Positions 6,307 to 60,657 are shown, counted from the stretch's first letter. The stretch: 64,000 nt of DNA from Rhynchobatus australiae (GCA_034780895.1 JAUZTB010000118.1:7634655-7698654), one strand, 5' to 3'. Numbers and translations are program-made. Notes: generated from the sequence alone by a model not told the origin.

Positions 6307-6525
6307 AAGAATCTGCTGAAGGAACTCACTGGGCTGAGCAACATCCGTGGGGGGAGAGGAATTGTCAACATTTCAGATCAAAAACCTGCATCAGGATTTA
6401 TCCCAATGCATGGTTTCAGCCTGAAATGTCGACAATTCTTTTCCCCCTCAGATGCTGCTTGACCTGTTGAGATCCTCCAGCAGATTATTTGTTGCTCCAG
6501 ATTCCAGAAACTTCTTGTTTCTCTG
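6307..6525. mobile_element. Fold-back (inverted) Penelope pLTR remnant with two degenerate hammerhead motifs
   Basis: About 90-bp arms (6307-6397 vs 6400-6490) are reverse complements, e.g. aatctgctgaaggaactca/tgagatcctccagcagatt and gaattgtcaacatttcag/ctgaaatgtcgacaattc. The minus strand reads ctgatgcagg...ctgaaatgttgac. Confidence 0.8.
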
Positions 6526-8089
6526 CATTTCACTTGTATCTATCCTCTACTTGCAGCATTTTTCTGGAGAAATCACCTTCCTTTTATTGGTAAAAGCTTC
6601 TGTAGTTTTTTGTTCCTTTTCTATTTGGACTGACTCATTTGAGTTTGTTGTAGAATCATTTATTTGGTAAGGTCATATGTCATCCATAAGACTCAGTCAC
6701 AGCCTTCCTTGCCAAAGAATTTTGCAAGGTTAGCCAGGGTTATCACCATTTTCTCCCTGGTAATCCTATACTGTTACAAAGATTTTGCAGAGATTTATAT
6801 GGGTCTCATATCAAAAAAGAGAAAGAAAAGTTTGAGAAGTAATATTCCTGATTTTTTTTAATACTTGTATAAGAAACAGTTCTACATAAGTTCAAAAGCT
6901 ATCAGAAAGCTGGTAAATTGTAAAGGCAGTAATTCATGTGGAGAAAACATTCCTGTCGAGTTTGCAGTTTAATAGCATTCACTGAAGTTAGCACAAATTG
7001 TAGTGAGATATACCTGTAGTATAAGTTTGTTTGAATCTTGTCATTTCNNNNNNNNNNNNNNNNNNNNNNNNNNNNNNNNNNNNNNNNNNNNNNNNNNNNN
7101 NNNNNNNNNNNNNNNNNNNNNNNNNNNNNNNNNNNNNNNNNNNNNNNNNNNNNNNNNNNNNNNNNNNNNNNNNNNNNNNNNNNNNNNNNNNNNNNNNNNN
7201 NNNNNNNNNNNNNNNNNNNNNNNNNNNNNNNNNNNNNNNNTCCATTGTTTGTAACCAAACAGGACTGACAGCTGAATCATGACCTCTGAAAGAATTCATG
7301 CAGCAAACCAGATTTGTACAGTATACATGAAGGTTCCACTTTTTGAGGGTGCTTGTAGATATGGGAGGATAAGCAAAGTAATTATTAGATAAAATAACTT
7401 AATTGTAAGCCTGTAGCTTAAACCTGAAATTGTTTCAAGTTCAGCCTGTCACACAAAGGAGAAAAGAACTTACAGTCCATGTTGTTCTAATCACAACCTC
7501 AAGACATCCTGGATAGCTTTCCAACCAATTAAATATTTGTAAGATGTTGGCACTATTGAAATGATGGAACCAATTTGCATAGAGACCAACTTTATCAAAA
7601 ATTCAATTCCAGTCCTGGCAACTCCTCAACAGAGTGTTTACAATCCAGACCCTGCTGATCTTAATCCTAGATGAGGGACAATAACAACACCCAGACTCAC
7701 GTTGCTCAGGAGTTTGCAAGTAGTGACAAATGTAGTTGCCCAATGCTCATATCAAGGCATAAATGTATGGTCTGTTCAGGGGGATTAAGTGAACAAGAGA
7801 TTACAATTGCAGGTGGCATGCTTGATTCCTGCTGGCTTGAGACAGATGGTGATAGCTGGAGGCAAGCAATTATCTTCTGAGAAGAGGCTAGAGACACATT
7901 TGCCCCGTTTTAATGATGCCACATAATCTCCAACACAACAGGCAAATGTTTCTGGTTTTCTCCTCAACAGTGGGCGAAAGCATCATGGCTTCACTCTGAC
8001 ACAATCTTCGTGGCAATATTTCAGCATGGCTTCCAAAGGCAGCAAATTGCCCCTTTTTGTGATGAATTAATTTTTCAGGATCTGGCCAT

Positions 8090-10020
8090 TGCCAACAAGG
8101 AGAGCACATATTGTCCATCCTCGACCGCCTTTGATTAGATGATTGTGAGCCCATCACAATATCTTGAACCACTGCAATCCTTCTGGTGAAGGCACTCCCA
8201 CAGTGCTGCTGGGAGTGAATTTCAGGATTTAGATGAAGTGATGATGAAGGATCAGCAATATACTTCCAGTTTAGGACCATGTACAATTTGGAAGATCCCC
8301 ATGTATCTGTTGCTTGTGTCCTTCTCAGTGATACCATTCCAGAGTGTGGAAGGTGCTTTGGAGTCATCTGAGTAACTGCAGTACGTTTTGTAGATGGTGC
8401 ACACTGCAGTCACAATGCACCAGCAGTGGTGGGAGTGAACACTTAGGGTTGTGGATGGGTTGAATTTCAACTGGGTTCCTTTGTCCTAAATAGGATTAGA
8501 ATTCTTGAGTATTGTAGGAGCTACACTCATCCAAGCAACACATATCTGATTTGTGCCTTGTAGTCTGTCACGCTAAAGAGAAAGACCTACAGTTATGTTC
8601 ACATCACAATCTCAGAAGTTCCCAGATAAATTTCCAACCAATTAGGTATTTGTGAAGGATCATCACATATCTGACTTGTGCCTTGTAGATAGTGAAAAGC
8701 CTTTGGGGTCTCAGTAGATGTGTCACTCCCACAGGATACCCAGCCTCTGATCAACTCTTGTAGACACAGTGTTTATGTGGTCAGTCCAGAGGAATCTTTG
8801 CTCAATGATGATGTGGAATATTGATGATCGGGGGGTACTCAGCAACGGTATTGGCATTATATTCGAGGATTAGGTTCCATCATACAGGATATCATCTTTA
8901 CCTGTTAATTTTGCAGTGTAAATGTTATTTGCCTGGTATCAACCTATACCCAAGTGTTGTCTAGGTCTTACTGCTTATGGGCATGGGTGGCTTCATTTAA
9001 AGTCATAAANNNNNNNNNNNNNNNNNAGCATGGAAACAGGCCTTTTGGCCCAACATCCATGCTGGCCAAAATGCCCATCTAAGCTAGTCCCATTTGCCCA
9101 CATTTGGCTCATCTCTTTTTAAACCTTTCATATCCATGTGCCAGTCCAAATGGCTTTTAAGTGTTGTCATTGTACCCTCCTCAACCACTTCCTTTGGCAG
9201 CTTGTTCCACATACACACCACCCTCTGCGTGAAGAAGTTGCCCCTTCAGCCCCTTTTTAATCTTTCCCCTCTTACCTTAAACCTATGCCCTCTAGTTTTT
9301 AATCTCCTTTCCATGGGAAAAAGACTGTGTGCATTCACCCTATCTATGCCCCTCATGTTTTAAACACAGTTTTCTATGATCCAGTGAATAAAGTCCTTGC
9401 CCACCCGAGCTTTCCTTATAATTCAGGCCCTCGAGTCCTGGCAACATTCTCGTAAATCTTCTTTGCACTCTTTGCAGCTTAATAACATCTTTCCTGTCAC
9501 AGGGTAACCAAAACCAATTCCATGGAAGGGATTACCAGATGTCACTTACCTTCATTTGCTGAAGATGTGCGAATGGAACTCCACATTGTGCAATCATCAG
9601 CAAATATCCTCACTTCTGATTTTACCGTGGAAGGACAATGATTAGTGAAGCAGCTGAAGGTGGCTGGGCCTAGGACACTGCCCTGAGGAACTCCTGCACT
9701 GAGGTTCTGGGGTTGGAGTCAACCACAACAACTTCAGTTGTGTGAGGTATGAGTCCATCCACGAGAGTGTTTTCCTTTGAACACTCGTTGACTTCACCTT
9801 TACCAGGATGCCTTCACGCCACATTCAGTCAACTGTTACCTTCTTGCTACCAGCAGTCACTCTCACCTCACCTCACCTCCATTATAGCTCTGGCCCAATA
9901 TTTGATTCACACTTGGCCAAAGCTATGAAGAGATCTGGACTCATGTAGACCTGGGAATCAATTCTTAGCACTGTCGATGATACCTTCCATCGCTCTGTTG
10001 GTAGACTGGACAGTAATTAC
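8090..10020 (-). mobile_element. Old CR1/L2-group LINE remnant with RT core, split by younger insertions
   Basis: Minus strand of about 9560-9700 translates to AGVPQGSVLGPATFSCFTN...EVRIFADDCT (non-LTR RT motifs). About 8665-8690 gives YKAQVR. Interrupted at 8564-8663 and 8999-9549. Confidence 0.8.
8999..9549 (-). mobile_element. CR1 LINE 3' fragment nested in older LINE, 8-bp TSD
   Basis: CR1 3' UTR and ORF2 end (minus strand RGHRFKVRGERLKRG.RGNFFTQRVV). Flanked by cttcattt at 8991-8998 and 9550-9557. Confidence 0.85.
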
Positions 10021-10309
10021 TTGGACTAGATTATGTTTAAACAGTTAACCAGCATCTGTTTGTGATACCTTTTGATAATTGAGAACATAATCTAATAGTA
10101 AACCATATATTAACTCTAAATTAAAATGAAGGCGTAAAGCCAGTGGATTTGTGTCCAAGCCAGTAACTTTGGGACAGTCATCAAGATTTATTCCAACAAA
10201 GAGTTATCACTGTGGAATGAATTTTCAGAGAATAGCAATTTTAATTTCTAGAGATAGATCAATTATGATTGGCTGAATGGCCTTCTATATTCTTGCAAAG
10301 GATAGGGTT

Positions 10310-10745
10310 AGATTAGTTTATTGTCATATACACCACTGTGCAATGAAATTCCTTGTTTGCATGAAGCTCACAGAGTAAATAGTATACAGGGTAATAAATA
10401 AGTACAACAAGAAGAATAATGAGTGTAAAACATTAGAATGGTGTAAAGATTGTAGTGCAATCTGAAGTAGTGCAACAAAAAATAAAGTGTCAGTAGTGGA
10501 ATAACCAAGAGCGGTAGAGTTCAGAGTACGAGAACGTGGCAGCATCGTCAGGAAGGAAGTGTGAAAGGGGTGATTGGTTCAGAAGTCTGATAGCAATGGG
10601 GTAGAAGCCGTTCTTAAGTCTGGACAGACTTCCAAGCTCCTGTATCTTCTCCCAGAAGGTAGAAGAGAGAAAAGAAAATGGCCAGGGCAGCAGGCACTCT
10701 TGATGAGACCACTCGTCTTCCTGAGGCAATGCACCATGAAGAGAG
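10310..10745 (-). mobile_element. Rex1/Babar LINE 3' fragment
   Basis: ORF 10579..10788(-) contains HCLRKTSGLIK...PGHFLFSLLPSGRRYRSL, the Rex1-type C-terminus. 3' UTR similar to other copies in the window. Confidence 0.8.
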
Positions 10746-11979
10746 AAAGAACTCCAATGATGAGAATACACAGATAAGGCCAGGCCACTTCCAGTCTTAT
10801 GATTTTGATATAACATTGCTCAGAGCTGTTTCAGGATGACCTGCCTTTGTTCAAGTAAGAAATCTTTCTCACGCTGAAAGGCACTGAATGAAGCAAAGGT
10901 TCTAATGAAGTTGTTTAAGCAGGCTGCAGGTCAGCCTGGAGATATTAACAGGTCAGGTCTGCCTATGTCAACAAAAACAGAACTCCGGCTTCACTATGAT
11001 AGAAATGTAAGTGTTTGTGGCTCCAGAATACTCAAACATCAGAATAATTATCTTCAGCGGCAACCACTCAGGATCCAATGATGACTTGCTTCCACATAGT
11101 TTTGTGGTGACTGATGAAGGCAATAGGGAGACTGCAAACTCTACTGTGATGATATTGAGCGTACCATCTGAGAGCTCTAAACTTAAGTCAAGACTTTAAG
11201 TTCTATCTGGCATAAGTATCTACGAATACCCTCACGATAGGGAGATTATACTGTATCAACCTACATTTCAAGGACCAGTTCACTTCACTACTTTAGTCTC
11301 TACGGAAAGGTCGAGCTGTCAATATTCATTAATTCAAGTGGTGGTTCCCTCCTCCCATCCAAGGAGAAAATGCTTCCAGTTAACGAAGCAGTTTAACCAC
11401 AATTTATTTTATTTTAAGAGAGACACGTTTACTTCTAATAAGTAATTCTTAACGATGACTTGCAATGTACAAAGGATTTCCAAATGCAAGTACAATTCTT
11501 ACAAGCTAAAAAGTCAAACCAGCAAGTTGCAGATGGACAAGTCGTCCATCACAAAAACCAAAAGCTGAGGAATGAATTCTAGGTCTTTGTTCTGCAACCC
11601 CTTCCCTCCGACATTCCCCCTACCCTGACTGCTTTCTAACATTTATACTGTTTTTTCACTTAGTTGACATCATTGGCGTGTGATGTTTTTTCAACCACAT
11701 TTTCAGCCCAGGTGACTGGAGTGTTTAATTAAGTAAACATGGATCACATTTTCTCTTGTTTATGTTGAGAGGCTGAACAGGGAATATTGGTTAGAAGTTT
11801 AACTGAGCAAACAACAAACATCTTGAGTTTTGGGCAATTTCTGTTATTTTTGCAAAAAGGATTTTAGCTTAATGAGCAACCACTTCTTAACCTTTGAACA
11901 GGTTATGCTGATGTTCTAAAAAGCTGAAGTTAGCAATAAGCCTTTTTGGGGTCCGGAAGGTGAATATCCATCACACTGC

Positions 11980-12240
11980 CACAAAGGTGACAGGAGGTGA
12001 CTGACAGGGCAGTCTGTGAGGTGGCCCACTCCTTTGCTGTTTACACAGGGTTTCTCAATACCATCCTGAATACTCCTTCTCCACTTCGAATGGTCATATA
12101 TTCTCAGAACTCAGTGGGGATATTGTACTTTTCCCAAGGCTTTAAGCACATGTTTAAATCTTTTCCTCTGTCCACCTGGTAACCTTTTCCATGAAATATA
12201 ATTATAGCCCTCAGTGGGATCTTGTGTCATTTAATTGATA
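11980..12240 (-). mobile_element. RTE/BovB-type LINE fragment
   Basis: Minus strand around 12140-12195 encodes GKRLPGGQRKRFKHVLK, matching the RTE C-terminal GGQ.KRFKD.LK motif. Confidence 0.65.
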
Positions 12241-14110: not shown

Positions 14111-14124
14111 TTCAACTGTCTTTA

Positions 14125-14670
14125 AGCTTCCAGCTGCCCATCACGATAATTGCCCACCACACTCCAATCTCTCTTGTCATTGACTGTTTCAGTGAAGTTC
14201 AACATGTGCTCAAGGAACAGCACTTCATCTTCTCTCTGGACCTATTACAGCCTTCAGAACCCAACAGTGAATTAAATATTTTCAGATTACCATCAAATTC
14301 AGTTCACTACCACATTTTCAGAGTTCAGTATTTTTCTGTCTCCTCCTCTGGCCTTTGAAGTTTCATTTGTCTCTCCCATTCACTCCTCTCCCTGACAGAA
14401 CTTTTGTTATCCACAAGCCTCCATCACTCTCTTTTTGCTGGTACCACCACAACTTATGTTCTTCAATCTCTCCTGGTCTCCACAATACCACAGTTCCATT
14501 TGTTCTCTCCAACCCTCCCCCCTTAACCTTCAAGTTCAAATTTGTGTTACTTTCACCTTTTCTCAGTTCTGATGAAAGGTCATTGACTTGAAACGTCAAC
14601 TCTGTTTCCCTCTACATAGACATTAACTGACCTGTTGAGTATTTTCACAATTCTCTGCTTTTACTTCAGG
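14125..14670 (+). mobile_element. Penelope-like element 3' remnant (GIY-YIG tail, UTR, pLTR)
   Basis: About 14190-14290 translates to CFSEVQHVLKEQHFIFSLDLLQPSEPNSELNIFR (degenerate PLE C-terminus). A pyrimidine-rich UTR and pLTR follow. Confidence 0.75.
14563..14603 (+). ncRNA. Minimal type I hammerhead ribozyme motif (PLE-associated)
   Basis: agtt-CTGATGA(14569-14575)-a-aggtc att gactt (stem II)-GAAAC-GTC-aact. Core boxes are intact, stem I is agtt/aact, and the palindromic ACGT forms a minimal stem III with a GUC cleavage triplet. Confidence 0.7.
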
Positions 14671-14754
14671 GAATGAAATCTTGGATTTGGGGAGAAGCAT
14701 TTGCTGATCTTGGGAATGGGTGGAGTCAAAGATTATAGAAGGTAGTTGATATCT

Positions 14755-15190
14755 CGCAGAGCAACACACAAGATGCTGGAGGAACACAGCGGGTCAGGCA
14801 GCATCTGTGGAGGGAAATGGACAGTTGATGTTTTGGAATGAGACCCTTCATCTGGACTGAAAGGTAGAAGGGAGATCGCCAGTATAAAAAGATGGAGGGA
14901 AGGGGTAGAGCAAGAGCTGGCAAATGATAGGTAATCCAGGTGAGGAGGGGTGATAGGCAGATGGAGGAGGGGTGATTAGCAAGGGGGTCAGAGAAAATCA
15001 GAGAGTGAGCTTGGGATCATGGGAGGTTGAAGNNNNNNNNNNNNNNNNNNNNNNNNNNNNNNNNNNNNNNNNNNNNNNNNNNNNNNNNNNNNNNNNNNNN
15101 NNNNNNNNNNNNNNNNNNNNNNNNNNNNNNNNGGTCGAAGAGAATCAGAGGCTAGGAGTGAGTATTGGTGATCAAAAGGGGAGATAGAAA
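14755..15190 (-). mobile_element. Penelope pLTR/UTR remnant with degenerate hammerhead
   Basis: gatgctggaggaacacagcgggtcaggcagcatctgtggagg pLTR signature. Minus strand reads cagatgaagggtctcattccaaaacatcaac (mutated core). Confidence 0.75.
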
Positions 15191-17184: not shown

Positions 17185-17318
17185 AGCAAAATAAAAACTG
17201 CTGATACTGGAGATCTGAAATAAAAGTAGAAATGCTGCAGATACATAGTTGTCAGGCAACATCTTGTGGACAAAGGATCAGAATTAACATTACAAGTTGA
17301 TGACATTCCATCAGAACT
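17185..17318 (-). mobile_element. Penelope pLTR remnant
   Basis: aaaactgctgatactggagatctgaaataaaag...gtcaggcaacatc; minus strand agttctgatgg...ttgtaatgttaattctg is a decayed hammerhead. Confidence 0.65.
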
Positions 17319-18140
17319 CTCAAGATGTAACATAACGGGAGCAGGGACAAAATGTAGTCCTCAGATGAAGAAGCGTTCTATAAATGGTGTCAGCTCAGAA
17401 ACAGCATTGGAGAGAATTTCTCTACACTATGGGTGATCAAGACAGATACTTGGGCAAGGATTGGTTGAGACGTGGAAATCAGGCTCATATATAAAGCAAA
17501 ACAACCAAGTATGTTCTTTCAGTTGGGTGTACCCGCATTCTGTGAAAAATTACCCCAAATTTTGTGACAGCATTTCCCAATTACCTCATTAAAAGTTTTC
17601 CAATGTTGAATTGATTCTACTTTAATTGATAATTATAATCAAGGCAAGCTGCAAGGAGAAATTAAGTGTTAAACTCACCTGTCTCATTCAATGGATTGGA
17701 AAGCCTGAATTCTTTCAGCGTTTCCCTAAGTTCTCCTGGCACTGTTGCTTTGTTTTTATTATCAATTAAAGTAGANNNNNNNNNNNNNNNNNNNNNNNNN
17801 NNNNNNNNNNNNNNNNNNNNNNNNNNNNNNNNNNNNNNNNNNNNNNNNNNNNNNNNNNNNNNNNNNNNNNNNNNNNNNNNNNNNNNNNNNNNNNNNNNNN
17901 NNNNNNNNNNNNNNNNNNNNNNNNNNNNNNNNNNNNNNNNNNNNNNNNNNNNNNNNNNNNNNNNNNNNNNNNNNNNNNNNNNNNNNNNNNNNNNNNNNNN
18001 NNNNNNNNNNNNNNNNNNNNNNNNNNNNNNNNNNNNNNNNNNNNNNNNNNNNNNNNNNNNNNNNNNNNNNNNNNNNNNNNNNNNNNNNNNNNNNNNNNNN
18101 NNNNNNNNNNNNNNNNNNNNNNNNNNNNNNNNNNNNNNNN

Positions 18141-18290
18141 GATGCTGGAAATCTGGAGCAACACACAAAGGAGCTGGAGGAACTCAGCGGGTCAGGAGCG
18201 TCTATGGAGTGAGATGGACAGTTGACGTTTCGGGTCGAGACCCTTCCCAAAATGTCAGCTGTCCATTTCCCTCCATGGATGCTCCTGACA
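18141..18290. mobile_element. Fold-back Penelope pLTR remnant
   Basis: Arms 18191-18234 and 18246-18289 are reverse complements. Minus strand keeps gaagggtctcgacccGAAACGTC (hammerhead stem II plus GAAAC/GUC), but the CTGAT box is lost at the inversion. Confidence 0.8.
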
Positions 18291-20010: not shown

Positions 20011-20044
20011 AATGTTGATTGATTGGTTGATTAATTTATTTGAT

Positions 20045-23089: not shown

Positions 23090-23880
23090 TACATAGAAGA
23101 CAGAACAGTACAGCACAGGAACAGGCCATTCAGCCCACGATGTCTGTGCCAAACGTAATGCCAAATTAAACTGAATCTATCTGCCTGCATATGATCCATA
23201 TCCCTTCATTCCCTCAATGTTAAAATCCCTGTCTAAGTGCCTCTTAAACATCATTGTCACGTCTGCTTCCACCGTCACCACTCCTGGCAGCATGTTCCAG
23301 GCACCTGCCACTCCCTGTGGAAAAAACTTATGCAGTACTTTCTCTTTGAACATTCCCCATCTCACCGCAAAGCTATGTCCTCTAGCTTTTGACATTTCTA
23401 TCCAAGGAAAAAGAATCTGACTATTTATCCTCCCTACACTTCTCATAATTTTATAAGCCTCTATCAGGTCTCTCCTCAGCCTCTGATGCTCCACAGAAAC
23501 CAATCCAAGTTTTTTCGATTTCTCCTTATAGCTATTATTCTCTAATCCAGGCAGCATCCTGGTGAACCTCTTCTGCACCTTGCCCAGAGCCTCCACATCC
23601 TTCCTGTAGTGCGGCTACCAGAACTGCACACAATACTCCTCATGTGGCCTAACCAAAGATTTATACAGCTGCAACATGACTTTCTGATTCTGATACTCAA
23701 ATGTCCCAACCAGTGCAGGCAACCATGCCACACACCTATCTACTTGTGTTCATGCTTTCAGGGAGCTATGGACTTGGACCTCAAGATCCCTCTGTACAAC
23801 AATGCTTCTAAGTGTCCTTCCATTAACTGTGTACTTTCCTTTTACACTTGACCTCAAGTCATCATCTCGCACTTGCTTCA
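23090..23880 (-). mobile_element. CR1 LINE ORF2 C-terminal fragment and 3' UTR
   Basis: ORF 23177..23596(-) reads ALGKVQKRFTRMLPGLENNSYKEKSKKLGLVSVEHQRLRRDLIEAYKIM...RGHSFAVR...FFPQGVAGAWNMLP. Confidence 0.9.
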
Positions 23881-23914
23881 TAAGAACATTACCTTCCCCT
23901 GTAGCACAGTATAA

Positions 23915-24033
23915 GGACATTGAGTATAAGAGTCAGAAAGTCATGATGCAGCTGTTTCAAACTTTGGTTTAGCCACATTAGGAGTTTTTGTGCAGTTCTG
24001 ATCGCCAGTGTACAGGACGGATGTGGGGGCTTT
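23915..24033 (+). mobile_element. Short CR1 fragment inverted relative to the neighbouring CR1
   Basis: Imperfect reverse complement of 23590-23706 (IEYKSQKVMMQLFQTLV). Confidence 0.7.
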
Positions 24034-24745: not shown

Positions 24746-27374
24746 GTTAGCTTCAAATTACTTTCAGGAAATAAATGTGCAGAGCTATCGAAAACACCTT
24801 CACTCACCTACAAAAGTCATGTTCTGTCCTTGGAGAGAGAGATGCTTATACAGATGCTTAAACTTGAGCTGAAACCTCATTCAGAAAATAGGTCGTGCAC
24901 TGAGTGTAATACTGTCTCCTTTTAATAAGGACACAATGAAGAGAGGAATGTTGCAGATTAAATGGGATCTATGTAAGAATTTTTTTTGAACATTTTGGGA
25001 AGCTTGCTAGTTAAGATTCTTTTCTTACCCCGAGCCTGTTACCATGCAACAGGAGAAGGCATAAGAAGGTGAAAGAAATTTTAGTTGGAGACTGAAGACA
25101 TGGCTTAATTCAATTCATGGTAGACTTATGAAAGAAAGAGACCAGGAGACATGAAATACTGTGTTCAGAAAGAATTCCAAATAGCTCGGGTGTAGTGACT
25201 GAAAGATAAGCTTCTGGCGTGGTGAATTGGAGCAAGCTGCAGGAAAGTGGATGGTTTACACAGGGATGTAAGATCATTCAGATCCTGGGAACGGGATCTT
25301 AAGCTAAGCATAAAGACCTGGATGCTAATTGGCTGCTTAGAGCCTATCATTGCACCTGGGGTCTCAGCAGCTTTGGAGGAGAGTTGGGACAAAAGAAGAG
25401 AGTGTATTGGAAGTGAAATTATGTGGACTTAGTGATGAAGGGGAAGACAGAATTAGACAGCATCTTTCACTTGCTCAGGACAGTTCAAACCACATTCCAG
25501 CCATGAAGTAGTTTTAAACTGTACTCATTATTATCACATCAGGACACATGTAACGGAAACAGATGTGGGACACGTTGAAGTGAACAGAGTTGCTACCTTC
25601 ATGAAAGGATGTATTTGAAGGTAGGATGAGATACATATGGACGCTGGCAGTGGGCTCTGGGATAGCTTTGGTCTGACAATGTGAGTGAAAGGAAATTTCT
25701 ACCCATCCAGCATGTTCTGTTATTGAGGCAGGTTAATTATGTAACGGTGATAGTATAGTGGAAGTGCCAGGGTAGTCATTGTCGGGTACATGAAAGTTGA
25801 TGCATTGCTCACACTGGTAGTCACTGGTTGTATTGGAGATCTGACACAGCATCAAACCTCTTGCATATGCAAAGTGACAGACTTCATAATTTGGACATGG
25901 ATAAAGGGCTGCCCCTATTTTTTCTCTTACCTAATATGGTAGATCAAGTACTTTTCATTAGAAGTTCACACACATTTGATGCATTTCATTGGAGTCTCAC
26001 CAGGTCATGTAGCACCTGAATGTTGGGTACCCTGTGGCACAATGTTACCCTCAAAGTACCTAAAGTGGATCTTCTATTTCTCTCTCCACAAATGTCACCT
26101 GACCTGCTGCGTGTTTCCAGCAATTTCTGCTTTTATTTCGGATTTCAAGCATTTGTGTTTTTTTTTAAATTTTCATTGTTTGTGGATTTATGTACCTGCA
26201 TTCAAAGAGAGTAAGCAGTCAGATGGAATCGGATGTATTTCTACAGCAGCAAATGGTAAAAATCTGATATGACAGTGAAAGTGGTTTATCTTGTTAAGAC
26301 TTAATTAAATTAAATTTTAGTTAGTAACTTAATTAGAGCTTCAATTTTGCAATTTTCTTGGATTAGAGGAGCCATGTGTTCAGGAAACTGTGTTGGAAGG
26401 GTGAAGAGTGAAAACATACATGCTTTGTCTAAATATATTTATTTCCCCCCTAATCTATACAATATAAACTATATAGGTTCAAACAAGCTTAGAAACATAT
26501 AGGGGTAATTTCATTCATCAGACTGTGCTGCTTCAATGAAGTAACCATTCACAGAGACTCATTTCTCTTACTTTCCAATGCATTTTATTTTTAAAATTGC
26601 TTTTGTGGAATGGGGACCCAGATAAATGCACATTATTTTTGTTACCTTGAGAAGTTAAAGGTGATCTTTTTTCTTAAGCTGAAGTCCTTGTGCTGATGCT
26701 ACTCCCATGATTATGTTAGGTCAGCTGTCCCAGAGTTTTGTTTCAGTGACAATGAAGGAACATGATAGATATCCAGGTCAGGAGGAGTGCGTGAATGTGA
26801 GCTTGCTATCCTTTTTCTTCTTGGATGTTATGGCTGAGAGGTCTGCAGGAGCAAACTATTCATTGTATGAAGTGAATATATTTCATATCAAGAAATTATA
26901 AATAGCAATACATAGAGATCAATGTGATTGTGAGTTAATAATCTAATCAACAGCATCATACATTGCATCATAAATCACAAGTGAAATTCATACAATCTGA
27001 TAATCATTCAAATCTGCAGAATGTAATCTCCTATTCCAGTATAGCTAATAAATATATACCCACATATCTCGATATGTTTAATAAGAAAGGCTTCTCAGAA
27101 AGTGCTGCATCTCTTGGGTAAATCAAAATGGAGCAGCACCTCACAACATGACAGGTTCCTTCAGGTGGAGAGATGTAAGGAATTAATTACTTTCAGATAA
27201 AATAAAATGAANNNNNNNNNNNNNNNNNNNNNNNNNNNNNNNNNNNNNNNNNNNNNNNNNNNNNNNNNNNNNNNNNNNNNNNNNNNNNNNNNNNNNNNNN
27301 NNNNNNNNNNNCCTCTTGATTTGGTCCTAATTTGATATTAAATTCATTTTTTTCTCTTTCTTTTGGGATTTGAG

Positions 27375-32350: not shown

Positions 32351-33303
32351 AACAAGTTCAGGGAACCCTTGCCTCCTGCGTTCCCTCCTCTCTATCTCCC
32401 CTTCGGATCCACATACGGTTCTCCCAATTTTGTCCCCTTTCCCATACCCCTCTGTCCAGCAGCCCCCCCCCATCACGTTTTAATCCACCGCCCCCTCCTG
32501 ATTCCATCCATCTACCAGCCACAGCCCCATTGGACACACCCCCCCCCATCTGGTTCTATCTGCCCTTCACCTCCAATTGTTCCCATTAACACCTTTCTTA
32601 CTTATCAGGTTCCAGTCTTTATGTCCCCGCTTTCACCATCCAGCCGTTGTCTCCCCCCTCACCCGCCCCTCCCCCCAGCGGGGTCGNNNNNNNNNNNNNN
32701 NNNNNNNNNNNNNNNNNNNNNNNNNNNNNNNNNNNNNNNNNNNNNNNNNNNNNNNNNNNNNNNNNNNNNNNNNNNNNNNNNNNNNNNNNNNNNNNNNNNN
32801 NNNNNNNNNNNNNNNNNNNNNNNNNNNNNNNNNNNNNNNNNNNNNNNNNNNNNNNNNNNNNNNNNNNNNNNNNNNNNNNNNNNNNNNNNNNNNNNNNNNN
32901 NNNNNNNNNNNNNNNNNNNNNNNNNNNNNNNNNNNNNNNNNNNNNNNNNNNNNNNNNNNNNNNNNNNNNNNNNNNNNNNNNNNNNNNNNNNNNNNNNNNN
33001 NNNNNNNNNNNNNNNNNNNNNNNNNNNNNNNNNNNNNNNNNNNNNNNNNNNNNNNNNNNNNNNNNNNNNNNNNNNNNNCCCTCCCCCTCTCCCACCTTGC
33101 TTCATCTGCCTGTCATCTTTCACCCCTCCTCCATGCACCTATCACCGACTGGCCCCTAATCTCACACCTCCTCCCCTCCTCTTTATACTGGTGACTCCTC
33201 CTTCAGTCCTTTCACCTCACAGATGCTGCTCGACCTGTTGAGTTCCTCCAGCAGTTTGCTTTTTTGCAACGGATGCCAGCAACTGCAGTCTCTTGTGTCT
33301 CTC
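32350..33303 (+). mobile_element. Penelope 3' UTR/pLTR remnant(s) spanning a gap
   Basis: C-rich UTR ending in cacagatgctgctcgacctgttgagttcctccagcag...gcagtctcttgtgtctc (pLTR end). Confidence 0.7.
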
Positions 33304-45354: not shown

Positions 45355-45915
45355 CTTATGGTGACGTGATGGAAGACTATTGAGCCCATCAGGTCCATGC
45401 TACCCTCAACAAAGCAACCCCACCAGTCCCAATCTTCCTCCGTCCTCACTTCCCTGCAGCCCCGTAACTTGTTCTATCACGCAAGCCCATCAACTTCCAT
45501 TTGATTCCTCTGCTATTCAAGGGATAATTTACAGTGAAAAATGTGATGATGCTGGAGGAACTCAGCAGGCCAGGCAGCATCCATGGNNNNNNNNNNNNNN
45601 NNNNNNNNNNNNNNNNGGCAGCATCCATGGAGAAAAGCAGGCAGTCAACATTTCAGGACCCAAAACTTTGACTGCCTGCTTTTCTCCACGGATGCTGCCT
45701 GGCCTGCTGAGTTCCTCCAGCATCACAGTGTTTTTCATCTAGGTTCCAGCATCTGCAGTCCTTTGTATCTCTCGGATAGTTTACAGTAGCCAATTAAATT
45801 ATCAGCACATCTCTGGAATGCGAGAGGTTACACGCAAACTACACGTGGTCAGTAGGGTCAAACCCAGGTCCCTGGAGCTTTGAGGCAGCAATGTTATCTG
45901 CTGCACCATTATGCT
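45355..45915 (-). mobile_element. Degenerate V-SINE interrupted by Penelope fold-back insert
   Basis: Head (minus strand tggtgcagcag...gggacctgggtttgaccc) at about 45855-45910; body and tail resume left of 45535. Confidence 0.7.
45536..45773. mobile_element. Fold-back Penelope pLTR element with 14-bp TSD
   Basis: Near-perfect arms gatgctggaggaactcagcaggccaggcagcatcc...gagaaaagcaggcagtcaa / ttgactgcctgcttttctc...ggatgctgcctggcctgctgagttcctccagcatc. Flanked by ggataatttacagt (45522-45535) and ggatagtttacagt (45774-45787). Confidence 0.85.
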
Positions 45916-47769
45916 ACCCCTTCACTGGTCCTCCATACATACAGGAAGTGTTACAATAGGAAGAAAGGGTACAATAGACTCTCAGCATGGAGAAAGGGGA
46001 ACGAATGTAGAGATTATGCTGGAGACACAAGGATGTGGAAAGAAAGGGGGATTATTGAAGTTATTGAAAATTATAGTGACAGACCAGAGGGCATTAGAGA
46101 GTGAATTTTGAAGAAAGATAAAGATGATATTTGATTACTCAGTTTTCAGATGAGGTAGCCTAACTGCAGCAACTATAATGATTGTAAAAGAAATCAACAG
46201 GGCACCTGGGTATTTTAAAAGAGCAGCAAATGCCCAGCAGAGTACTCCATATTTGTTAAGAGAAAAGAAGTGTTTGAATTTCAGCAGTGCACCTGATTTT
46301 CACAAAATTTTCACAATGGTATTTCTAGATGCTGACAGGTCTGTGCACATTTCCAGTACTTTCAATTCATTCTTCCAACTTCCAGTATCTTGTTTTAAGC
46401 TGATAACCCATGATACTGTAAAGGGAAGAGCAGGAATGCATTCTTTCTGGATTCTCTGGAATGTGCCAAATGGATCCCCCCTTCCAAATCAACCATGTCG
46501 TCGAAGCAAAAAACTGCAGGTGCGGAAAATATGAGACAAGTCAGGCAGCATCTATGGAGAGGGAAACAATTCCAGTCATTGGCTCCTCATTAAGTAGCTG
46601 CCGTATCACCTGCAGAATGATTCTGGCATTTTCTGGTTTTATTTCAATCATATTATTATATCACCTAGTCTGAAGGAAGATCACATGGAGTGGGTGTTAT
46701 TTTATCTGCAGCACAGAAGCCACACACCTCTTAATTTTCTTTTCCTCCAGTACACAAAGTAGATTGCTGTAAACCTCAGTGCAAGACTCCAGCAAGTCTG
46801 CCTGTTTATATAAAAATAATTAAGGATACAAGTAAAAGGGAAAAATTGGCTTCACTCCAACACCTGGACCCAAACTCCATATGCACTGCTACAAAAGACA
46901 TTTCGGTTGTTGTGCCAACAAAGATATTTCCCCCAAGAGACATAGCCATCTGCACCGATCCTAAACAACATTATGTTAATACATTTTTTTTTAAACATCG
47001 CAAAATTGCATTCAAATGGAGGGCTGAATGGGTAATAACATGAACTGCGTTGCTGCTGTGTTCCCAGTTTAAGCTGTTTAAATGACTGTTTAGAATGCAT
47101 AGTTCCCCATGGATAACAACTATGGCATTAAGTACAACAAAATGTAGACCAAAACACAAATAATTCAGCCGCTTGGACAATGTATTGATTGCTTGGACTC
47201 GTGTGTACCTGAGTCATGGAAAGTTAATGATGCACATTAATGCTGATTGGTTTAATAACTTCTGAATCCTGTATTTGTGTAGTCCCAGTTGGCATCGTGA
47301 TCAAATGAGCCTTATGACTGACAAAGCCATTGACTGAACTGAGGCAAGTAAATCTGAAGTTACAAATTGTAATTTTTAAAAAAGTGATCCAGGTTTTCTC
47401 AATCAAAGGTCTTTGGTGGATTTGAACCAAGGTGTGGTCCATCTGTGCACCATGTTGGTGTCTCTGATTTGGATCCAGTAAGGAGTGACCACTTGATTTT
47501 CTGCCTCATGGATTACTTAAAGGTCTTCCACTGCTTATTTATGTTATTTTTGAATAGATAGGTGAATATACTGTGTTGCAACACATCAAGGTGCTTGAAT
47601 AATATAAAGTAAAGCTCAATGGTTGCTAAATTTATATGTTGTATTGCTTCAAGCAGGGATGACCGATCTGCATTCCATAGCTCCCTGCAGCCCCAAATCC
47701 TTGCAAATATGGCTGTCGACTAAACTGTCCTGTTTACATTCTTGTGTGGTTTGTCATGTCTGAAGTGCA

Positions 47770-49439: not shown

Positions 49440-49620
49440 TGAGCAACCATCTGCTGGAGGCAATCAACGGGTGGAACAGTAACTGGGAGGGGAGGCGTGC
49501 AAAGAAACTGTCAATGTTCCGGATTGAAACCCTGCATCAGGACTAAGAGTGGAGAGGGAGGTAGCCAGTGTAAAGGGGAGAGGGGGAGTGGTGAGACAAG
49601 GGTCAGAGGTGATTGCAGAC
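49440..49620 (-). mobile_element. Penelope pLTR remnant with degenerate hammerhead
   Basis: Minus strand reads gtcctgatgcagggtttcaatccggaacattgacag, followed by a ctccagcagat pLTR end. Confidence 0.65.
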
Positions 49621-51799: not shown

Positions 51800-52038
51800 T
51801 TCAGTAATTGTTACCTTAACAACTTTGGTTTGCACCCTTATCATAGTCATTCCCCTGTTCTTTCTACCTTCCCCCCTCCGCAAATTAAAATTTATATCTT
51901 TTCATTTTGAGTGCCAATGAAGGGTCGTTGATCCGAAGCATTAACTCTGCTTCTCTCTCCACTGATACTACTTGATATGCCAACTCTTTCTAGTATTCCC
52001 TGTTTTATTTTGGATTTCCAGCATCTGCAGTTTTTGTA
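51800..52038 (+). mobile_element. Penelope UTR/pLTR remnant
   Basis: ccaatgaagggtcgttgatccgaagcattaactctg (decayed hammerhead) ... ttttattttggatttccagcatctgcagttttt. Confidence 0.65.
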
Positions 52039-55437: not shown

Positions 55438-55745
55438 CCACATTTTAAGGAAGGAAAGGGAAATCTAACCTCTGATGCCAAAGGAATTCAGAAAAGGTGT
55501 ATGGAATTTTATATTTTGTTATGTTCGTCTCAGATTCCCAGAGCATCTCACTGACTTCCTGACAGACATCTATAGAAACAGATTTGGTTTCTATCCTGTA
55601 ATATCTCACAGGTTAAAACATAGTTGCCTGGATTAGAGGAATTTGGTCAGGGGAAGAGATTGGATATGCTGGAATCAAGGAGACTGAAGGGTGACCTGAA
55701 TAATTAGGAAAATTGGATTATTCGGAAAATTGAGGAAATACTCAC

Positions 55746-56050
55746 CAGGCGTCATCTTCAAAAAAAGTAACAGAAATGATCATCTTTTGTCATTAACTTT
55801 TCGTCAGATCAGCGAAAGAGCAGTTGATGAAACAATAACTCAGTTCTTCTCACTGCAAACGATGCCTTTCCAGCACTTTCAGATGTCCATGATGTGTGCT
55901 GTTTTGTTTTTAGAATGCCTGGGATTGCTAACTTTTAAACTGATATGTTCAGTGGCCCTCAAAAGCTCCATTCCTGTTCCTCTCTCGACCGAACCTTCCA
56001 GTCTTGCTCTGATGCAAACGGCGAAACAAATGCTTCCATTCTTATCCAGA
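55746..56050 (-). other. Candidate upstream (probably non-coding) exon or promoter-proximal exon
   Basis: Strong donor CTG|gtgagt at 55745. About 8 CpGs in roughly 285 bp of unique sequence against a CpG-depleted background. 5' boundary unknown. Confidence 0.3.
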
Positions 56051-56694
56051 TTTTCACTCCAAGAAATGTTTGCCTTAAACCAAAGAAATTTTCATGGGAT
56101 TAGTCCAGGATCCTCACTCTGTGCAACATATCCACTTTCACAGGGGGAGAGTCAATCATGAAGGATAATCTCCCATTCCAATTATATTCACAGCATTTGG
56201 GGAGAACGTGCTAAAGAACAACAGAAAGAGATTTTCTGTTGAAACATAACAATAAATGAAGCATATAATAATGAAGGCTTTACAGAAAAGTGAAAAATAA
56301 AATTCAAATTTTACATTATAAGAACATAAATGAGGGAAGAGGCTATTCAGACCCTACAGACTGTTTCACAATACAACCAATTTGGAGAGGAGTGAAGTTG
56401 AAATGGACTGCTGTCCAAACAAGAAGGTGGAAATACTCTTGTATTGTCCGTGCTGCTTGTAGGCTGTTTGTTGAGTGACACAGACAACTCTGTTGTAAAG
56501 GCAATTACAATGCTGGGAACTGCTGGCTTGTAAGTCTATTAACTCTATTTAGAAATAATCCAGCAGTGTATCCAAAGTGGATGGAAAAGATGTGCATTTA
56601 CATAGTGCCTCAGGACATCCCAAAGCATTTGAGCATTAATGAAGTAATGGTTGAGCGATCATCACAGTTAAAATGGAGGAATTAATGTCATTGT

Positions 56695-56830
56695 TGGTGT
56701 TTCAGGTCAATGACCTTTCATCTGATGAAAGATTATCGACTTGGAACATTAACTCTGTTTATCTCCACAGATGCTGTTTGACACCTCCAAGATTTTCAAA
56801 TTTCCATCATTTACAATATTTTGCTTTTCT
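56695..56830. mobile_element. Fold-back Penelope pLTR remnant with back-to-back hammerhead cores
   Basis: tgtttcaggtcaatgacctttcatc-t-gatgaaagattatcgacttggaaca: symmetry axis at 56723 lies inside CTGATGA (56722-56728). Confidence 0.75.
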
Positions 56831-57398
56831 TTTGTAGTGTTGTAATGAAAGATTAAAAATAATGTAGTGGTTTGCCACACAAAGTGTTTCAGCCAGCTTC
56901 AAAGTTCAATTTCTAAATTACGCCTATTGTAAAATCACTGCAGTCTTAAAATGACCCCAACTATCCACTTTAGAAAGGCTGAAGCAAAACTTCATTTTAT
57001 GCTGCGACTTAAGAGTTTGACTGTATCAGCATCTTCTGTTCTGCACTGACTTTTTGTTCCTATTGAAACCGTTCAACTCTTACTCAACAAGAGGGAAGTT
57101 CACCTCCCTCAGTTTACAATCTGATCTGTAACACCCTGTTAATTGGTAACTTGCTACTCTTGGCTTTCACGTGATTGAAATGGCCTCAAAGTGGACTTAA
57201 AAAGCAAAAGCAAAATTGCGGATGCTGCAAATCTGAAATAAAAACAGAAAATGCTGAGGATACTCTGCAGGTCAGGCAGCACCTGTAGAAAAAAAAATGA
57301 TGAAGCAGTATCTTTTACATTGAAGAGAGAGCTGGGTATGAACAGTAAATGCCAGAAACACCTAACAGAACGACTACTTTGTGTTGGTCTTCACGGTG

Positions 57399-57680
57399 GA
57401 TAAGATAAGATAAGATTTCTTTATTAGTCACATGTACATCGAAACACACAGTGAAATGTCTCCTTTGCGTAGAGTGTTCTGGGAGCAGCCGCAAGTGTCA
57501 CCACACTTCTGGCGCCAACATAGCATGCCCAGAACTTCCTAACCCGTATGTCTTTGGAATGTGGAGGAAACTAGAGCACCCTGAGGAAACCCATGCAGAC
57601 ACGGGGAGAACGTACAAACTCTTTACAGACAACAGCCAGAATTGAACTTCACTTGGCACCGTAATAGCGTTACGCTACCA
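57399..57680 (-). mobile_element. V-SINE with Rex1/Babar-like 3' tail and (TCTTA)n end
   Basis: V-domain (minus strand gagtttgtacgttctccccgtgtctgcatgggtttcctc) joined to tail tttattagtcacatgtac..acagtgaaa that resembles Rex1 3' ends; taagataagataaga terminal repeat. Confidence 0.8.
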
Positions 57681-57689
57681 TGAGAACAT

Positions 57690-58299
57690 GTCCAACATGC
57701 CAAAGAGAAATATTATGGATGCGATGGGAGGTGAGGACCTCAATACAATCGCTATCACTAAAGAGATAGTGATGAGCAAACTAGTGGTCCTAAAGGTAGA
57801 CAAGTCCCCTGGTCCTGATGGGATGCATCCCAGGATACTGAAAGAAATGGCAGAAGTTATGGTAGAGGCGTTTGTGATAACTTACCAGAATTGTCTGGAC
57901 ACTGGGCAGGTCCCGGCAGATTGGAAGGCAGCGAATGTCATGCCTCTGTTTTAAAAAGGATGTGGGCAAAAGGCAGGTAACTGAAGGCCAGTTAGGTTAA
58001 CATCTGGAGTCAGGAAAATGCTTGAAACTATCATTAAAGAAGAAATAGCGAGACATCTGGATAGAAGTGGTTCCACAGGCAGTCACAGCATGGATTCCGG
58101 AAGGGCAGGTCCTGGTTGACAAACTGAGTAGAATTCTTTGAGGATATAATGAGCACAGTGGATAGAGGGGGACAGGTGGATGTTATATACTTGGATTTCT
58201 AGAAGGCATTCAAAAAGATGCTGCATAAAAGACTTATCCATAAGATAAGGATGCATGGAGTTGGGGGTAATGTATTAGCATGGATAGAGGATTGGTTAA
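57690..58299 (+). mobile_element. CR1 ORF2 reverse transcriptase remnant
   Basis: LKVDKSPGPDGMHPRILKEMAE...VPADWKAANVMPLF*KG...VDVIYLDF*KAF..HKRLIHKIRMHGVGGNVLAWIEDWL, with in-frame stops. Confidence 0.9.
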
Positions 58300-58399
58300 N
58301 NNNNNNNNNNNNNNNNNNNNNNNNNNNNNNNNNNNNNNNNNNNNNNNNNNNNNNNNNNNNNNNNNNNNNNNNNNNNNNNNNNNNNNNNNNNNNNNNNNN

Positions 58400-58463
58400 T
58401 GGGAATTGAACCCGGGTCACTGGCACTGTAATAGCGTTACACTAACCGCTACACTACTGTGCC
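58400..58463 (-). mobile_element. tRNA-derived SINE head (V-SINE family), truncated by gap
   Basis: Minus strand reads ggcacagtagtgtagcggttag...gacccgggttcaattccc (A and B boxes). Confidence 0.75.
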
Positions 58464-58479
58464 TGTCCACTGTTTGCTG

Positions 58480-59230
58480 TCATATACATCAGGGTGCAAT
58501 GAAATTCCTTGCCTGCATGAAGCTCACAGAGTAAACAGTAGACATGGTAATAATAAATACAACAATAAATACAGGAATGAGCACAAAGCAATAGAGTGGT
58601 GCAAAGATAGTAGTGCAAACTGAAGTAGTGCAAAAAGAAATGCTAGGGTGCATGGACAGGAAAGGATTAGAGGGATATGGGCAAAATGCAGGCAAATGGG
58701 ATTAGCTCAGATAGGTAACTTGGTCGGCGCGGACAAATTGGGCCAAAGGGCACATCTCCGTGCCGTATAACTCGATGACTTAATGTCCGGGGTCAAGGGA
58801 TATGAGGAGATGTTGGGAACAGGCTAATGAAGTGGATAATCAGCCATGATAACATGGAATACTGGAGCAGGCCCAAGGAGTCAAATGGTTGACTTCTGCT
58901 CCTATATTTCAGGTTACTGTGTTTTTATGACTTCGAATGGAACCTGCAGGTGGTGGCCTCCCATGTACCTGTTACCCTGTGTGGTAGATCTCTCGGGTTT
59001 GGGAGGTGCTGTGAAACTAGCCCAGGTAGGTAACTGCAGTGCAATTTGTCAATGGTGCACACTGCAGTCGCTGTGCGGTGGTGGATCGATGGGTGGCATG
59101 TCAGCCAAGGGGCTGCTTTCTCTGGATGCAGCTGAGTTTCTTGAGCGTTAATAGAGCTGCACTTCTCCAGACAAATGGAGGGTTTTCCATTGCACTCCAG
59201 ACTTCGTGCCTTCAATGATAGAACAGAAAG
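58480..59230. mobile_element. Cluster of short LINE remnants (Rex1 UTR, two CR1 tails, old CR1/L2-group fragment)
   Basis: 58480-58637 matches 10325-10480. 58645-58780 and 58800-58915 are plus-strand CR1 3' ends. 58930-59230 is collinear with 8290-8540. Confidence 0.65.
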
Positions 59231-60234
59231 CCAGCTATCCAAGTATTCCAATGACATAAAGATAGGCACGAGTATGAACAGTGTACCTGGAGTAATACAT
59301 ATAATTCTAATGAGATCCTGATCAAATGCCCCATGTTCTTTGATCCTTTGGTTCACAAAAACTTATTGATCTCCTGTTTAAAAGTTGACTTAACTCGAAT
59401 TATCTTTCTTGGAAAGGAATTTCTACACTTCTCTGTGTGTATAGGAGCTCTCTGAAAGCCCTGTCCTCTCAATTTTAGACTATTTTCCCCAGTTCTGGAC
59501 ATCCCAGCCAGCTGAAATAGCTTCTCTCCATCCATCCTGTCAGCTCTCCATAATATCCTGAAAGTTAACCCTCGACCTTCGAAATTCCAGGGAATGTAGT
59601 CCTAGTTGCTGCAATCTCCTCTCATTTAATATCAGGAATTTAAGCATCACTGTGTTCAGTTCATGCTGTACTGTCCTCAAGGATAAGGTGCACACCTCAT
59701 TGTGTTCCCACCATCCCCTCTTTCCACCAACCACCACCTCTCCTCACATGCCCAACAACTCCCCTCTGATACTTTTTTACCGTTAACCAATACTGGGAGG
59801 TTCGAGGTATTGGGCTTGGTGGAAGAGAAAAGATGAGTAAGAAATTTAGGAAAGGCATAGTTTGAGGGTTAGAATCAGAAGAAGTGATGAGGTCAGAGGG
59901 CATAAGGACTGATGGAGATAGGATGCCGGGGGTTTAATTTAAAAATAATTGAAGCTATTGTTGGGTCAGGAGCTACTGTAAGCTAGCAAACACTGAGGTT
60001 GAAAGCTGAGTGGGACAGTCACAAAAAAATTTCCAGTGCAGGATGTTGGGGCTAAAATCAAGGTTAGTAGTATGGTCTGGGCGAGTGGTGAGATAGACCT
60101 GGGTGTCAACAAAGAACAAGCATAACAGATGTTACTTTGCCTATGATTGCTGAGATCCTTACAGAAGGGAAATTAGATGGGAACAAGACAAGAGAGCAGG
60201 ACCAGAAAGACAAGCTTTGTAGGTAATTTGATGG

Positions 60235-60507
60235 CGGGGGGGATAGATTTAGGACAGAAATGAGGAGAAACTGCTTTTCCCAGAGAGTAGTGAATCTGTG
60301 GAATTCTCTGCCCAGGGAAGCAATAGAGGCGACCTCATTAATCATATTTAAGACATTAGATTTTTACATAGTAAGGGAATTGAGGGTTACAGGGAAAAGG
60401 CAGGTTGGTAAAGCTGAGTCCATGGCCAGATCAGCCATGATCTTACTGAATGGTGGAGCAGGCTCAACAGGCCAGATGTTCTACTCCTGCTCCTATTTCT
60501 TATGTTC
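60235..60507 (+). mobile_element. CR1 3' fragment
   Basis: Translates to FRTEMRRNCFSQRVVNLWNSLPREAIEATSLIIFK, followed by the CR1 3' UTR. Confidence 0.85.
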
Positions 60508-60510
60508 ACC

Positions 60511-60657
60511 CAGCAAGTTAGGCAGCATCTGTAGAAAGAGAAACAGAATTAATGTTTCAGTTCTGACAAAGTTTCTTTGACCTGAACTTTAACCCTGTCT
60601 CTTTCTGCAAGTGCTGCCTGATCTGCAGAGTGTTTTTATTTCAGATTTCTCGCAGTT
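60511..60657. mobile_element. Fold-back Penelope pLTR remnant
   Basis: aggcagcatctgtagaaagagaaacagaattaatgtttcag versus ctgaactttaaccctgtctctttctgcaagtgctgcct, with decayed ctgacaaa core between them. Confidence 0.65.

Follow-up and report, generated by a model that had tools for sequence, protein, structure and literature searches.

Head-to-head pairs of Penelope-like element ends in Rhynchobatus australiae: arm structure, junctions and probable origin

Background

In the 5' inversions of L1 elements that arise by twin priming, the second primer starts internally on the template, and the two resulting pieces do not overlap. Inverted structures are also a published feature of Penelope-like elements (PLEs), for which an inverted pseudo-long terminal repeat (pLTR) with a tail at one end, a palindrome at the junction and a target duplication are described in the available portions of several reports (PMC3846280, PMC8557442, PMC2377424, PMC8969392). 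Studies of a PLE from Anolis further demonstrated that its protein, which is predicted to form a dimer, cuts and extends both target strands, that reverse transcription has two internal start sites, one at either limit of the tail, and that hammerhead cleavage is dispensable (PMC11167929). Here we describe five short palindromes in a stretch of 64,000 nucleotides from Rhynchobatus australiae (GCA_034780895.1, JAUZTB010000118.1:7634655-7698654; hereafter the window), each composed of two 3' ends (pLTRs) of an endonuclease-bearing (EN+) PLE that are joined at their 5' ends, the repeat end being approximately 130 bp in length. An initial annotation had proposed that such inverted repeats turn upon the hammerhead ribozyme of the pLTR, either through ribozyme-guided fold-back or template switching or as a non-autonomous hairpin element. 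The palindromes are real and represent an ordinary by-product of a decayed PLE, and their statistics bear on an open mechanism.

The window was compared with a sample of the assembly (2.2 Gb, gappy, with N making up 18% of the sampled sequence), consisting of 140 stretches of 10 kb taken at fixed round positions on large scaffolds and containing 1,142,487 non-N bases. The sample yielded 316 pLTR matches, and a reversed control yielded none. Five subfamilies (F1 to F5) were clustered from 149 pLTR matches, with individual copies 81-93% identical to their subfamily consensus. Positions are numbered from the C of CTGATGA (+1); the hammerhead then occupies -4 to +33, and its predicted cut falls after +28/+29.

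Single insertions with two unlike arms

Among neighbouring pLTRs within 50 bp of one another in the random sample, 43 pairs were head-to-head, one was tail-to-tail and six lay on the same strand, and no arrays were present. The corresponding density (37.6 pairs per Mb) extrapolates to tens of thousands of pairs genome-wide; with 43 pairs and 230 solo copies, about one insertion in six (43/273) is a palindrome, typically of about 170 bp (range, 87 to 239 bp). Five pairs were dropped before counting, leaving 38 clean ones: L143, which contains two subfamilies and looks like two insertions, and L068, L073, L108 and L111, in which the spacer exceeds 14 nt or a gap lies at the junction. About seven further pairs with one long arm (L085, L103, L108, L111, L153, L068 and L154) stand outside the 38 and were recognised by eye only, because the references contained inverted arms and leave-one-out BLAST extension therefore ran through them; in most of these the other arm likewise ends at the hammerhead. 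Hidden Markov models (HMMs) extended upstream were discarded as overfitted to their own training flanks.

Target duplications were sought in 35 pairs (31 from the random sample and four from the window). A direct repeat of 9-15 bp surrounds the whole pair in 10 of them, as compared with none of 400 shuffled flank pairs, namely in 10 of 21 younger F2-F5 pairs and in none of 14 old F1 pairs. Host flank copied in inverted form was seen in none of the 35. Because the target duplication encloses both arms, each palindrome is a single insertion event. The initial annotation had assigned the arms to different subfamilies, which holds for the five loci taken together, since they span four subfamilies, and not for the arms of one palindrome, which normally belong to the same subfamily (34/38 when each arm was called independently by HMM; chance expectation, 0.34).

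The 3' ends of the pLTR are bimodal, lying near +97 and near +129, and the difference corresponds to the PLE tail. Both classes are found among solo copies (89 long and 81 short), with the same hot spot of 5' ends and with target duplications of their own. In the palindromes the two are combined: 28 of the 29 random pairs that could be classified have one long and one short arm, where approximately 50% would be expected from the solos (P=5e-8). The same combination was found in 15/16 and 17/21 pairs of two sets chosen by pattern, and the exceptions in the latter set appear by eye to be internal deletions or a mis-scored target duplication. When the 5' reach of the arms was compared in the 28 long/short pairs, the short arm extended more than 3 nt further in 19, the long arm did so in six, and the two were level in three, an asymmetry that is qualified below. 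In 19 of the 28, neither arm was copied from the other, because each holds sequence that is absent from its partner.

Position of the axis

The initial annotation placed the axes in or beside the hammerhead, and this clustering is confirmed: at least one arm ends between -8 and +33 in 35 of the 38 pairs, and both do in 19 of the 38. Solo copies, for their part, have 62 of 184 5' ends between -9 and +3. Among solos of F2-F5 the fraction is 25 of 77, with three ends in the 26 nt upstream and four in the 26 nt downstream; in 30 copies selected for an intact core, 11 end between -7 and 0 and the others at -13 or beyond. No peak of solo ends was found at the cut site (8 in +26 to +33 versus 16 in +8 to +25). 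The hot spot is thus the 5' edge of helix I, common to pairs and solos, and not the cleavage site; and because solo copies stop at the same place, the axis of the palindromes is mainly a hot spot of 5' ends. Arms of pairs end inside the hammerhead more often than do solos (inside versus at the edge, 31 vs 23 in pairs and 28 vs 62 in solos; P=0.003), and this excess points to trimming of the ends, or their annealing, during joining.

A pyrimidine tract followed by CAG lies at the helix I hot spot; in Drosophila virilis an intron has its 3' boundary where helix I begins, according to the available part of that report (PMC4209133). A spliced template was considered as the cause of the hot spot and found to be weak, with no common exon sequence before the 5' ends. 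It is unlikely to be the whole cause, because the target duplication lies immediately next to the end and the predicted acceptor AG often remains.

A proposed mechanism

On balance, it is probable that a palindrome consists of two separate target-primed cDNAs, one from each of the two PLE start sites, that were end-joined where they had stopped. The RT-GIY-YIG protein (in which RT denotes reverse transcriptase) would make a staggered cut of approximately 12-14 nt, and both of the freed 3' ends would prime reverse transcription, with starts near +129 for one end and near +97 for the other, some 32 nt apart. The cDNAs would often end between -9 and +3, most likely on template RNAs that begin or are trimmed there, or otherwise where the RT stalls. 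Trimming of the two cDNA ends would be followed by their joining, whether bluntly, across a few filler bases, or via matches of 2-3 nt in the hammerhead stems; where only one end primed, a solo copy with either 3' end would result. The hammerhead would act in this process as a landmark rather than as a cutter.

Several points weigh against two separately primed cDNAs. The mechanism is read from decayed genomic copies alone, and their decay (81-93% identity to consensus) blurs junctions and conceals short microhomology, while the reason offered for the cDNA stop at helix I is itself a proposal. The 19:6 asymmetry in 5' reach is inflated, very short 'short' arms having been missed. Non-consensus variants in common between arms number 1.5 per pair versus 0.7 for unrelated copies, and this excess is equally compatible with a single RNA, a single source lineage or copying. 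Finally, a minority of palindromes fit a snap-back event well, namely those with their axis in stem II and the locus L028 (1470-1720). The latter, obtained from a biased search, has long 3' ends on both arms and an inverted repetition of about 17 bp of host flank, and is the one clear candidate for cDNA fold-back.

A broader proposal, which we hold more tentatively and regard as possible rather than probable, is that PLE integration in general would proceed by asymmetric double priming, in which a dimeric RT-endonuclease gives each target strand one start site, and most templates would be short RNAs starting from the 5' border of the hammerhead, which would form a protein-bound end cap rather than a cutter. 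If true, one mechanism would account for the inverted pLTR, the one-sided tail and a conserved but weakly active ribozyme.

Diversity of the junctions

The 38 random pairs have 38 distinct junctions. Most are blunt or contain short fillers, and others use matches of 2-3 nt; the offset between the arms ranges from 0 to about 90 nt. Microhomology of at least 2 nt was present in 1 of 10 random pairs without a spacer and in 5 of 9 in a set restricted to the hammerhead, and the hammerhead stems provide the 2-3 nt of microhomology at a minority of recurrent junctions. Exact patterns returned 44 joins of helix I to stem II (GGAC/CC; GGAC/GTCC) and up to 29 stem II palindromes versus 1,028 intact cores, a ratio that is rough, the patterns being unequal in length and degeneracy; about 9 of the 15 stem II palindromes that were fetched are true pairs. 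The recurrent GGAC junction occurs in several subfamilies, its target duplication differing from locus to locus, and in the well-scored pairs among 30 fetched copies the arm that reaches -2 is the short one in seven and the long one in five. Recurrent joins of this kind are repeated uses of the same microhomology and not a mobile family.

Weighing the alternatives

The alternative with most in its favour is that fold-back of an antisense RNA or of the first cDNA at the hammerhead yields, once copied, a hairpin that exceeds both final ends in length, with the endonuclease then trimming the tail of one arm. Palindromes at inverted junctions led to the proposal of such self-priming in Adineta PLEs (PMC3846280), and the tail has been interpreted as endonuclease resolution (PMC8557442), at least in the accessible parts of both papers. 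The exact recurrence of stem II palindromes (29) and of GGAC/GTCC joins (44), the excess of pair ends inside the hammerhead (P=0.003) and the inverted host flank of L028 are all in accord with it. Most junctions, however, lack the loop plus microhomology that such a route would leave, and the offsets between arms span 0 to about 90 nt; either the long or the short arm can have the greater 5' reach, even at one and the same junction (7 vs 5); solos occur with either 3' end, stop at the same hot spot and have target duplications of their own; and RT starts at both of these ends in vitro (PMC11167929). Because each arm carries sequence that the other lacks in 19 of 28 pairs, simple cDNA fold-back is not supported as the main route, and the absence of inverted host flank from all 35 pairs points the same way; the fold-back suggested in the initial annotation is therefore not borne out as the general route. 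The stem II class and L028 could be products of fold-back, which does not readily account for the loop-less joins, the homology-free offsets of up to 90 nt, the two polarities or the solos with either end; as an account of the palindromes at large we consider it unlikely.

The remaining alternatives appear far less probable. That cleavage by the ribozyme sets the breakpoints, the ends of the cut RNA fixing where the cDNA stops, would suit axes in or beside the hammerhead and the covariation of helices I and II across subfamilies; but the core upstream of the cut site is retained in most copies, +26 to +33 has no peak of ends, and the subfamilies with an altered core consensus (F2/F3 and F5) show the same hot spot, so that guidance by ribozyme cleavage, as initially suggested, is very doubtful, the ends of solos too being concentrated at the 5' border of helix I. 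Two successive and independent insertions, the second into or beside an older pLTR, might be expected where pLTRs are this dense (316 matches in 1.14 Mb), given that L143 appears to be such a case and that the Anolis protein cuts its own pLTR-ORF junction (that between pLTR and open reading frame) in vitro (PMC11167929); against this, the orientation bias of 43 vs 1, the single target duplication enclosing both arms, the common subfamily in 34/38 and the long-plus-short rule make it very improbable as the general origin. A non-autonomous palindromic mini-element (a hairpin SINE, a MITE (short interspersed nuclear or miniature inverted-repeat transposable element) or a retrozyme) amplifying as a unit is suggested by the copy number (37.6 pairs per Mb), the target duplications, the recurrent exact junctions and a locus, L002, that is near-identical to one window palindrome and has the same junction. 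That locus lies against a gap, and assembly may have duplicated it; the recurrent junction is tied to no single polarity or subfamily, the palindromes range between 87 and 239 bp in length, the listed junction matches (the first 100 of 743 and 100 of 196) were highly varied, and, because all 38 random junctions differ, with no internal junction in common, the palindromes are not a mobile hairpin family, a reading which is largely refuted. Least probable is an artefact of short-read assembly, which might be suspected in an assembly with many gaps (18% of the sample is N), two of the five loci themselves adjoining such gaps. The arms, though, differ by approximately 17%, have unlike 3' ends and lie between target duplications, and the palindrome at 56693 (palindrome 4 below) is spanned in full by a contig of a second organism, with two differences in 436 bases, its axis being crossed as well by a contig of a third organism with about 5% flank divergence. 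Because contigs of these two organisms carry it, palindrome 4 is, on this comparison, real and older than the split of those organisms, contrary to the assembly artefact that had been raised as a concern. For the palindrome at 45536 (palindrome 3), the outer junctions are covered by contigs of the best-matching organism and its relatives, and none among the contigs listed spans the axis.

The palindromes and solo copies of the window

All five inverted repeats of the initial annotation were recovered as head-to-head pLTR matches, four of them being listed at 20 bp or more, and its axis positions agree with the junctions obtained by joint alignment of both arms. The extents that it gave were too short and are revised to 6301-6523, 18141-18289, 45536-45773, 56693-56782 or further, and 60508-60654. 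The joint alignment joins -3 to -1 across a 2-nt spacer at 6398/6401, +6 to +19 at 18246/18247, +18 to +17 at 45657/45658, +3 to +2 at 56722/56723 and +20 to -1 at 60560/60561; the axes of palindromes 4 and 5 have microhomology of 2 nt and 3 nt, respectively. The five pairs compare with 2.3 expected from the genome rate (P=0.08), and an excess is not clear.

6301..6398, minus strand: palindrome 1, left arm; F2 pLTR, -3 to +94, short 3' end
6401..6523, plus strand: palindrome 1, right arm; F2 pLTR, -1 to +128, long 3' end with tail; spacer 6399-6400
18141..18246, minus strand: palindrome 2, left arm; F5 pLTR, +6 to +110, running into an assembly gap
18247..18289, plus strand: palindrome 2, right arm; F5 pLTR, +19 to +62, without the 3' part
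45522..45535, no strand: palindrome 3, left copy of the target duplication; 14 bp, 13/14 identical
45536..45657, minus strand: palindrome 3, left arm; F4 pLTR, +18 to +96, short 3' end
45658..45773, plus strand: palindrome 3, right arm; F4 pLTR, +17 to +130, long 3' end
45774..45787, no strand: palindrome 3, right copy of the target duplication; 14 bp
56693..56722, minus strand: palindrome 4, left arm; old F1 pLTR, +3 to +32
56723..56782, plus strand: palindrome 4, right arm; F1 pLTR, +2 to +63, with a weak extension to +124 at 56822
60508..60560, minus strand: palindrome 5, left arm; F1 pLTR, +20 to +72
60561..60654, plus strand: palindrome 5, right arm; F1 pLTR, -1 to +111

No significant target duplication was found around palindrome 1 (score 5). 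When folded as RNA over its whole length, this element is predicted to form a single hairpin (-109 kcal/mol, z -9.6). A 118-bp copy of palindrome 2 (window 18141-18259) is present at L002 (G000:C64:130320182-130320299), 99% identical and with the same junction. The window copy is gapped on the left and L002 on the right, and their flanks are not in common; they may represent a duplication or else a single locus that was broken in assembly. A scaffolding gap of 30 N (45587-45616) with an identical 14 bases on either side interrupts the left arm of palindrome 3 and is likely to be an unmerged contig overlap.

Ten more solo pLTR copies lie inside the window, two of them with upstream 3' untranslated region (UTR):

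14556..14669, plus strand: solo F1 pLTR, -12 to +101; whole minimal hammerhead motif from 14569
14759..14960, minus strand: solo F5 pLTR with upstream 3' UTR; short 3' end
17194..17318, minus strand: solo F1 pLTR, -3 to +122
26073..26155, plus strand: solo F1 pLTR fragment, +33 to +115
33207..33301, plus strand: solo F2 pLTR fragment, +35 to +128
46504..46590, minus strand: solo F1 pLTR, +4 to +99
49443..49592, minus strand: solo F2 pLTR with upstream 3' UTR, to +90
51899..52034, plus strand: solo F1 pLTR, -14 to +122
57214..57297, minus strand: solo F1 pLTR fragment, +37 to +120
60827..60946, minus strand: solo F1 pLTR, +6 to +126; a separate insertion, 176 bp to the right of palindrome 5

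No host gene or exon was found in the window, where 70 of 118 unmasked ORFs were searched and gave 0 Pfam matches, so that the intronic hairpins of double-stranded RNA envisaged in the initial annotation are conjectural. Two other inverted arrangements were noted. One, of 444 bp at 23588-24031, belongs to another abundant repeat (78 BLAST matches in the sample), which we take to resemble a long interspersed nuclear element (LINE), and consists of a fragment joined to a shorter inverted piece of itself. The other, at 17616-17775, is a 49-bp AT-rich inverted repeat that adjoins an assembly gap and has no match in the 1.14-Mb sample.

The element and its hammerhead

The sequences of longer copies identify the palindrome arms as the 3' pLTR ends of an EN+ PLE, in keeping with the pLTR origin initially assigned to them. 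Decayed RT (L180 and L184) and GIY-YIG (L189, L197 and L200) sequences lie 5' of F2/F3 pLTRs in the same orientation, with Pfam matches to RVT_1 (E=0.0019) and GIY-YIG (E=0.0056) that both fall under the curated cut-offs; the upstream consensus of F1 and F4 reaches, by eye, the same ORF end. Among 25 long loci of this gappy assembly, there was no intact ORF and no full-length or pLTR-ORF-pLTR copy. A cysteine cluster precedes the GIY-YIG sequence in L200 and L184, which would be Neptune-like going by the linker type alone, as that type is described in the accessible part of the source (PMC8557442). At L184 (1-370), an inverted 5' piece of the copy's own GIY-YIG end appears by eye to be joined to the long RT-bearing copy, with an axis far from the hammerhead.

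Small contigs with open RT-GIY-YIG frames (L171-L173 and L175), retrieved by a search for the GIY-YIG family, were considered as the source and rejected, as they have no match to the pLTR and belong to other PLE families. Their frames extend to 595 amino acids or more and are followed by telomere-like repeats, and L172 has a hammerhead-like motif of its own; they might derive from young PLEs or from foreign DNA that entered the assembly.

The hammerhead motif is likewise supported. In helices I and II, 82.6% of cells are paired over 19 natural copies, with compensatory changes, and the covariation score was equalled by 1 of 500 shuffles. Rfam, searched at E<=5, returned no hammerhead, the only matches being hairpin-shaped microRNA models below their gathering scores. 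By its sequence, the pLTR carries a minimal hammerhead that is putatively catalytic. The core consensus is altered to CTGATGC in F2 and F3 and often to CAGATGA in F5, at what are presumably invariant hammerhead positions; these subfamilies have still amplified widely, with the same hot spot of ends. Consensus folds of F1, F2, F3 and F5 also predict an internal stem of +45 to +54 with +107 to +116 around the short 3' end, which may be a stem-loop bearing the RT start sites.

Comparison with known systems

The stubs constitute a countable genomic footprint, nearly always with one long and one short arm, with arms that are not copies of one another and a helix I stop common to solos, and this footprint links the two RT start sites defined in vitro to the inverted pLTR. 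If transcribed, they would also place tens of thousands of possible RNA hairpins in the genome. No report was found, in a literature search with Arkhipova 2006 and 2017, Repbase entries and supplements outside its scope, of the long-plus-short rule, of double priming by PLEs or of a hot spot of ends at helix I.

The joining of both cDNAs head to head within one target duplication, after priming from both target ends, is a feature in common with twin priming of L1; here, unlike there, both cDNAs would start at fixed 3' sites and thus duplicate the same end. Non-LTR retrozymes are similarly short, non-coding, hammerhead-bearing and PLE-derived, but in the accessible part of their description (bioRxiv 10.64898/2026.07.22.740005) they form head-to-tail tandem arrays, in contrast to the head-to-head pairs or solos found here, which have no family-wide unit.

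The hammerheads resemble the minimal type I motifs of metazoan PLEs in their sequence motif, an extra base before helix II and a palindromic helix III, and, as in those elements, the majority of copies are truncated solos; the same report also mentions pairs on opposite strands, separated by 100-700 bp, and the pyrimidine tract and CAG of the R. australiae family lie where the D. virilis intron ends, at the 5' limit of helix I. Self-cleavage and circles are proposed there, whereas here the ends lie at the 5' edge of helix I and not at the cut (PMC4209133, as far as its accessible text extends).

Poseidon of Anolis carolinensis, PAc, has a minimal hammerhead at the end of its pLTR, two 3' ends that bound the tail, and a product that is not set by hammerhead cleavage, in all of which the present family is alike. 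Inverted insertions are not discussed in that study (PMC11167929), and the R. australiae family differs from PAc in having a cysteine linker before GIY-YIG.

The closest counterparts are the EN+ PLE insertions represented by Pen2a_Av of Adineta vaga (PMC3846280), by D. virilis Penelope (PMC2377424) and by a general scheme (PMC8557442), in which, according to the accessible portions of these sources, an inverted pLTR is likewise placed head to head with a 30-40 bp tail at one end only, a target duplication surrounds the unit and a palindrome lies at the junction. The R. australiae palindromes differ from them in consisting of two pLTR ends of 40-130 bp with no ORF, in numbering tens of thousands, and in having their junction at the hammerhead; and, unlike the self-priming proposed for Adineta (in the accessible text of PMC3846280), two primed cDNAs fit them better.

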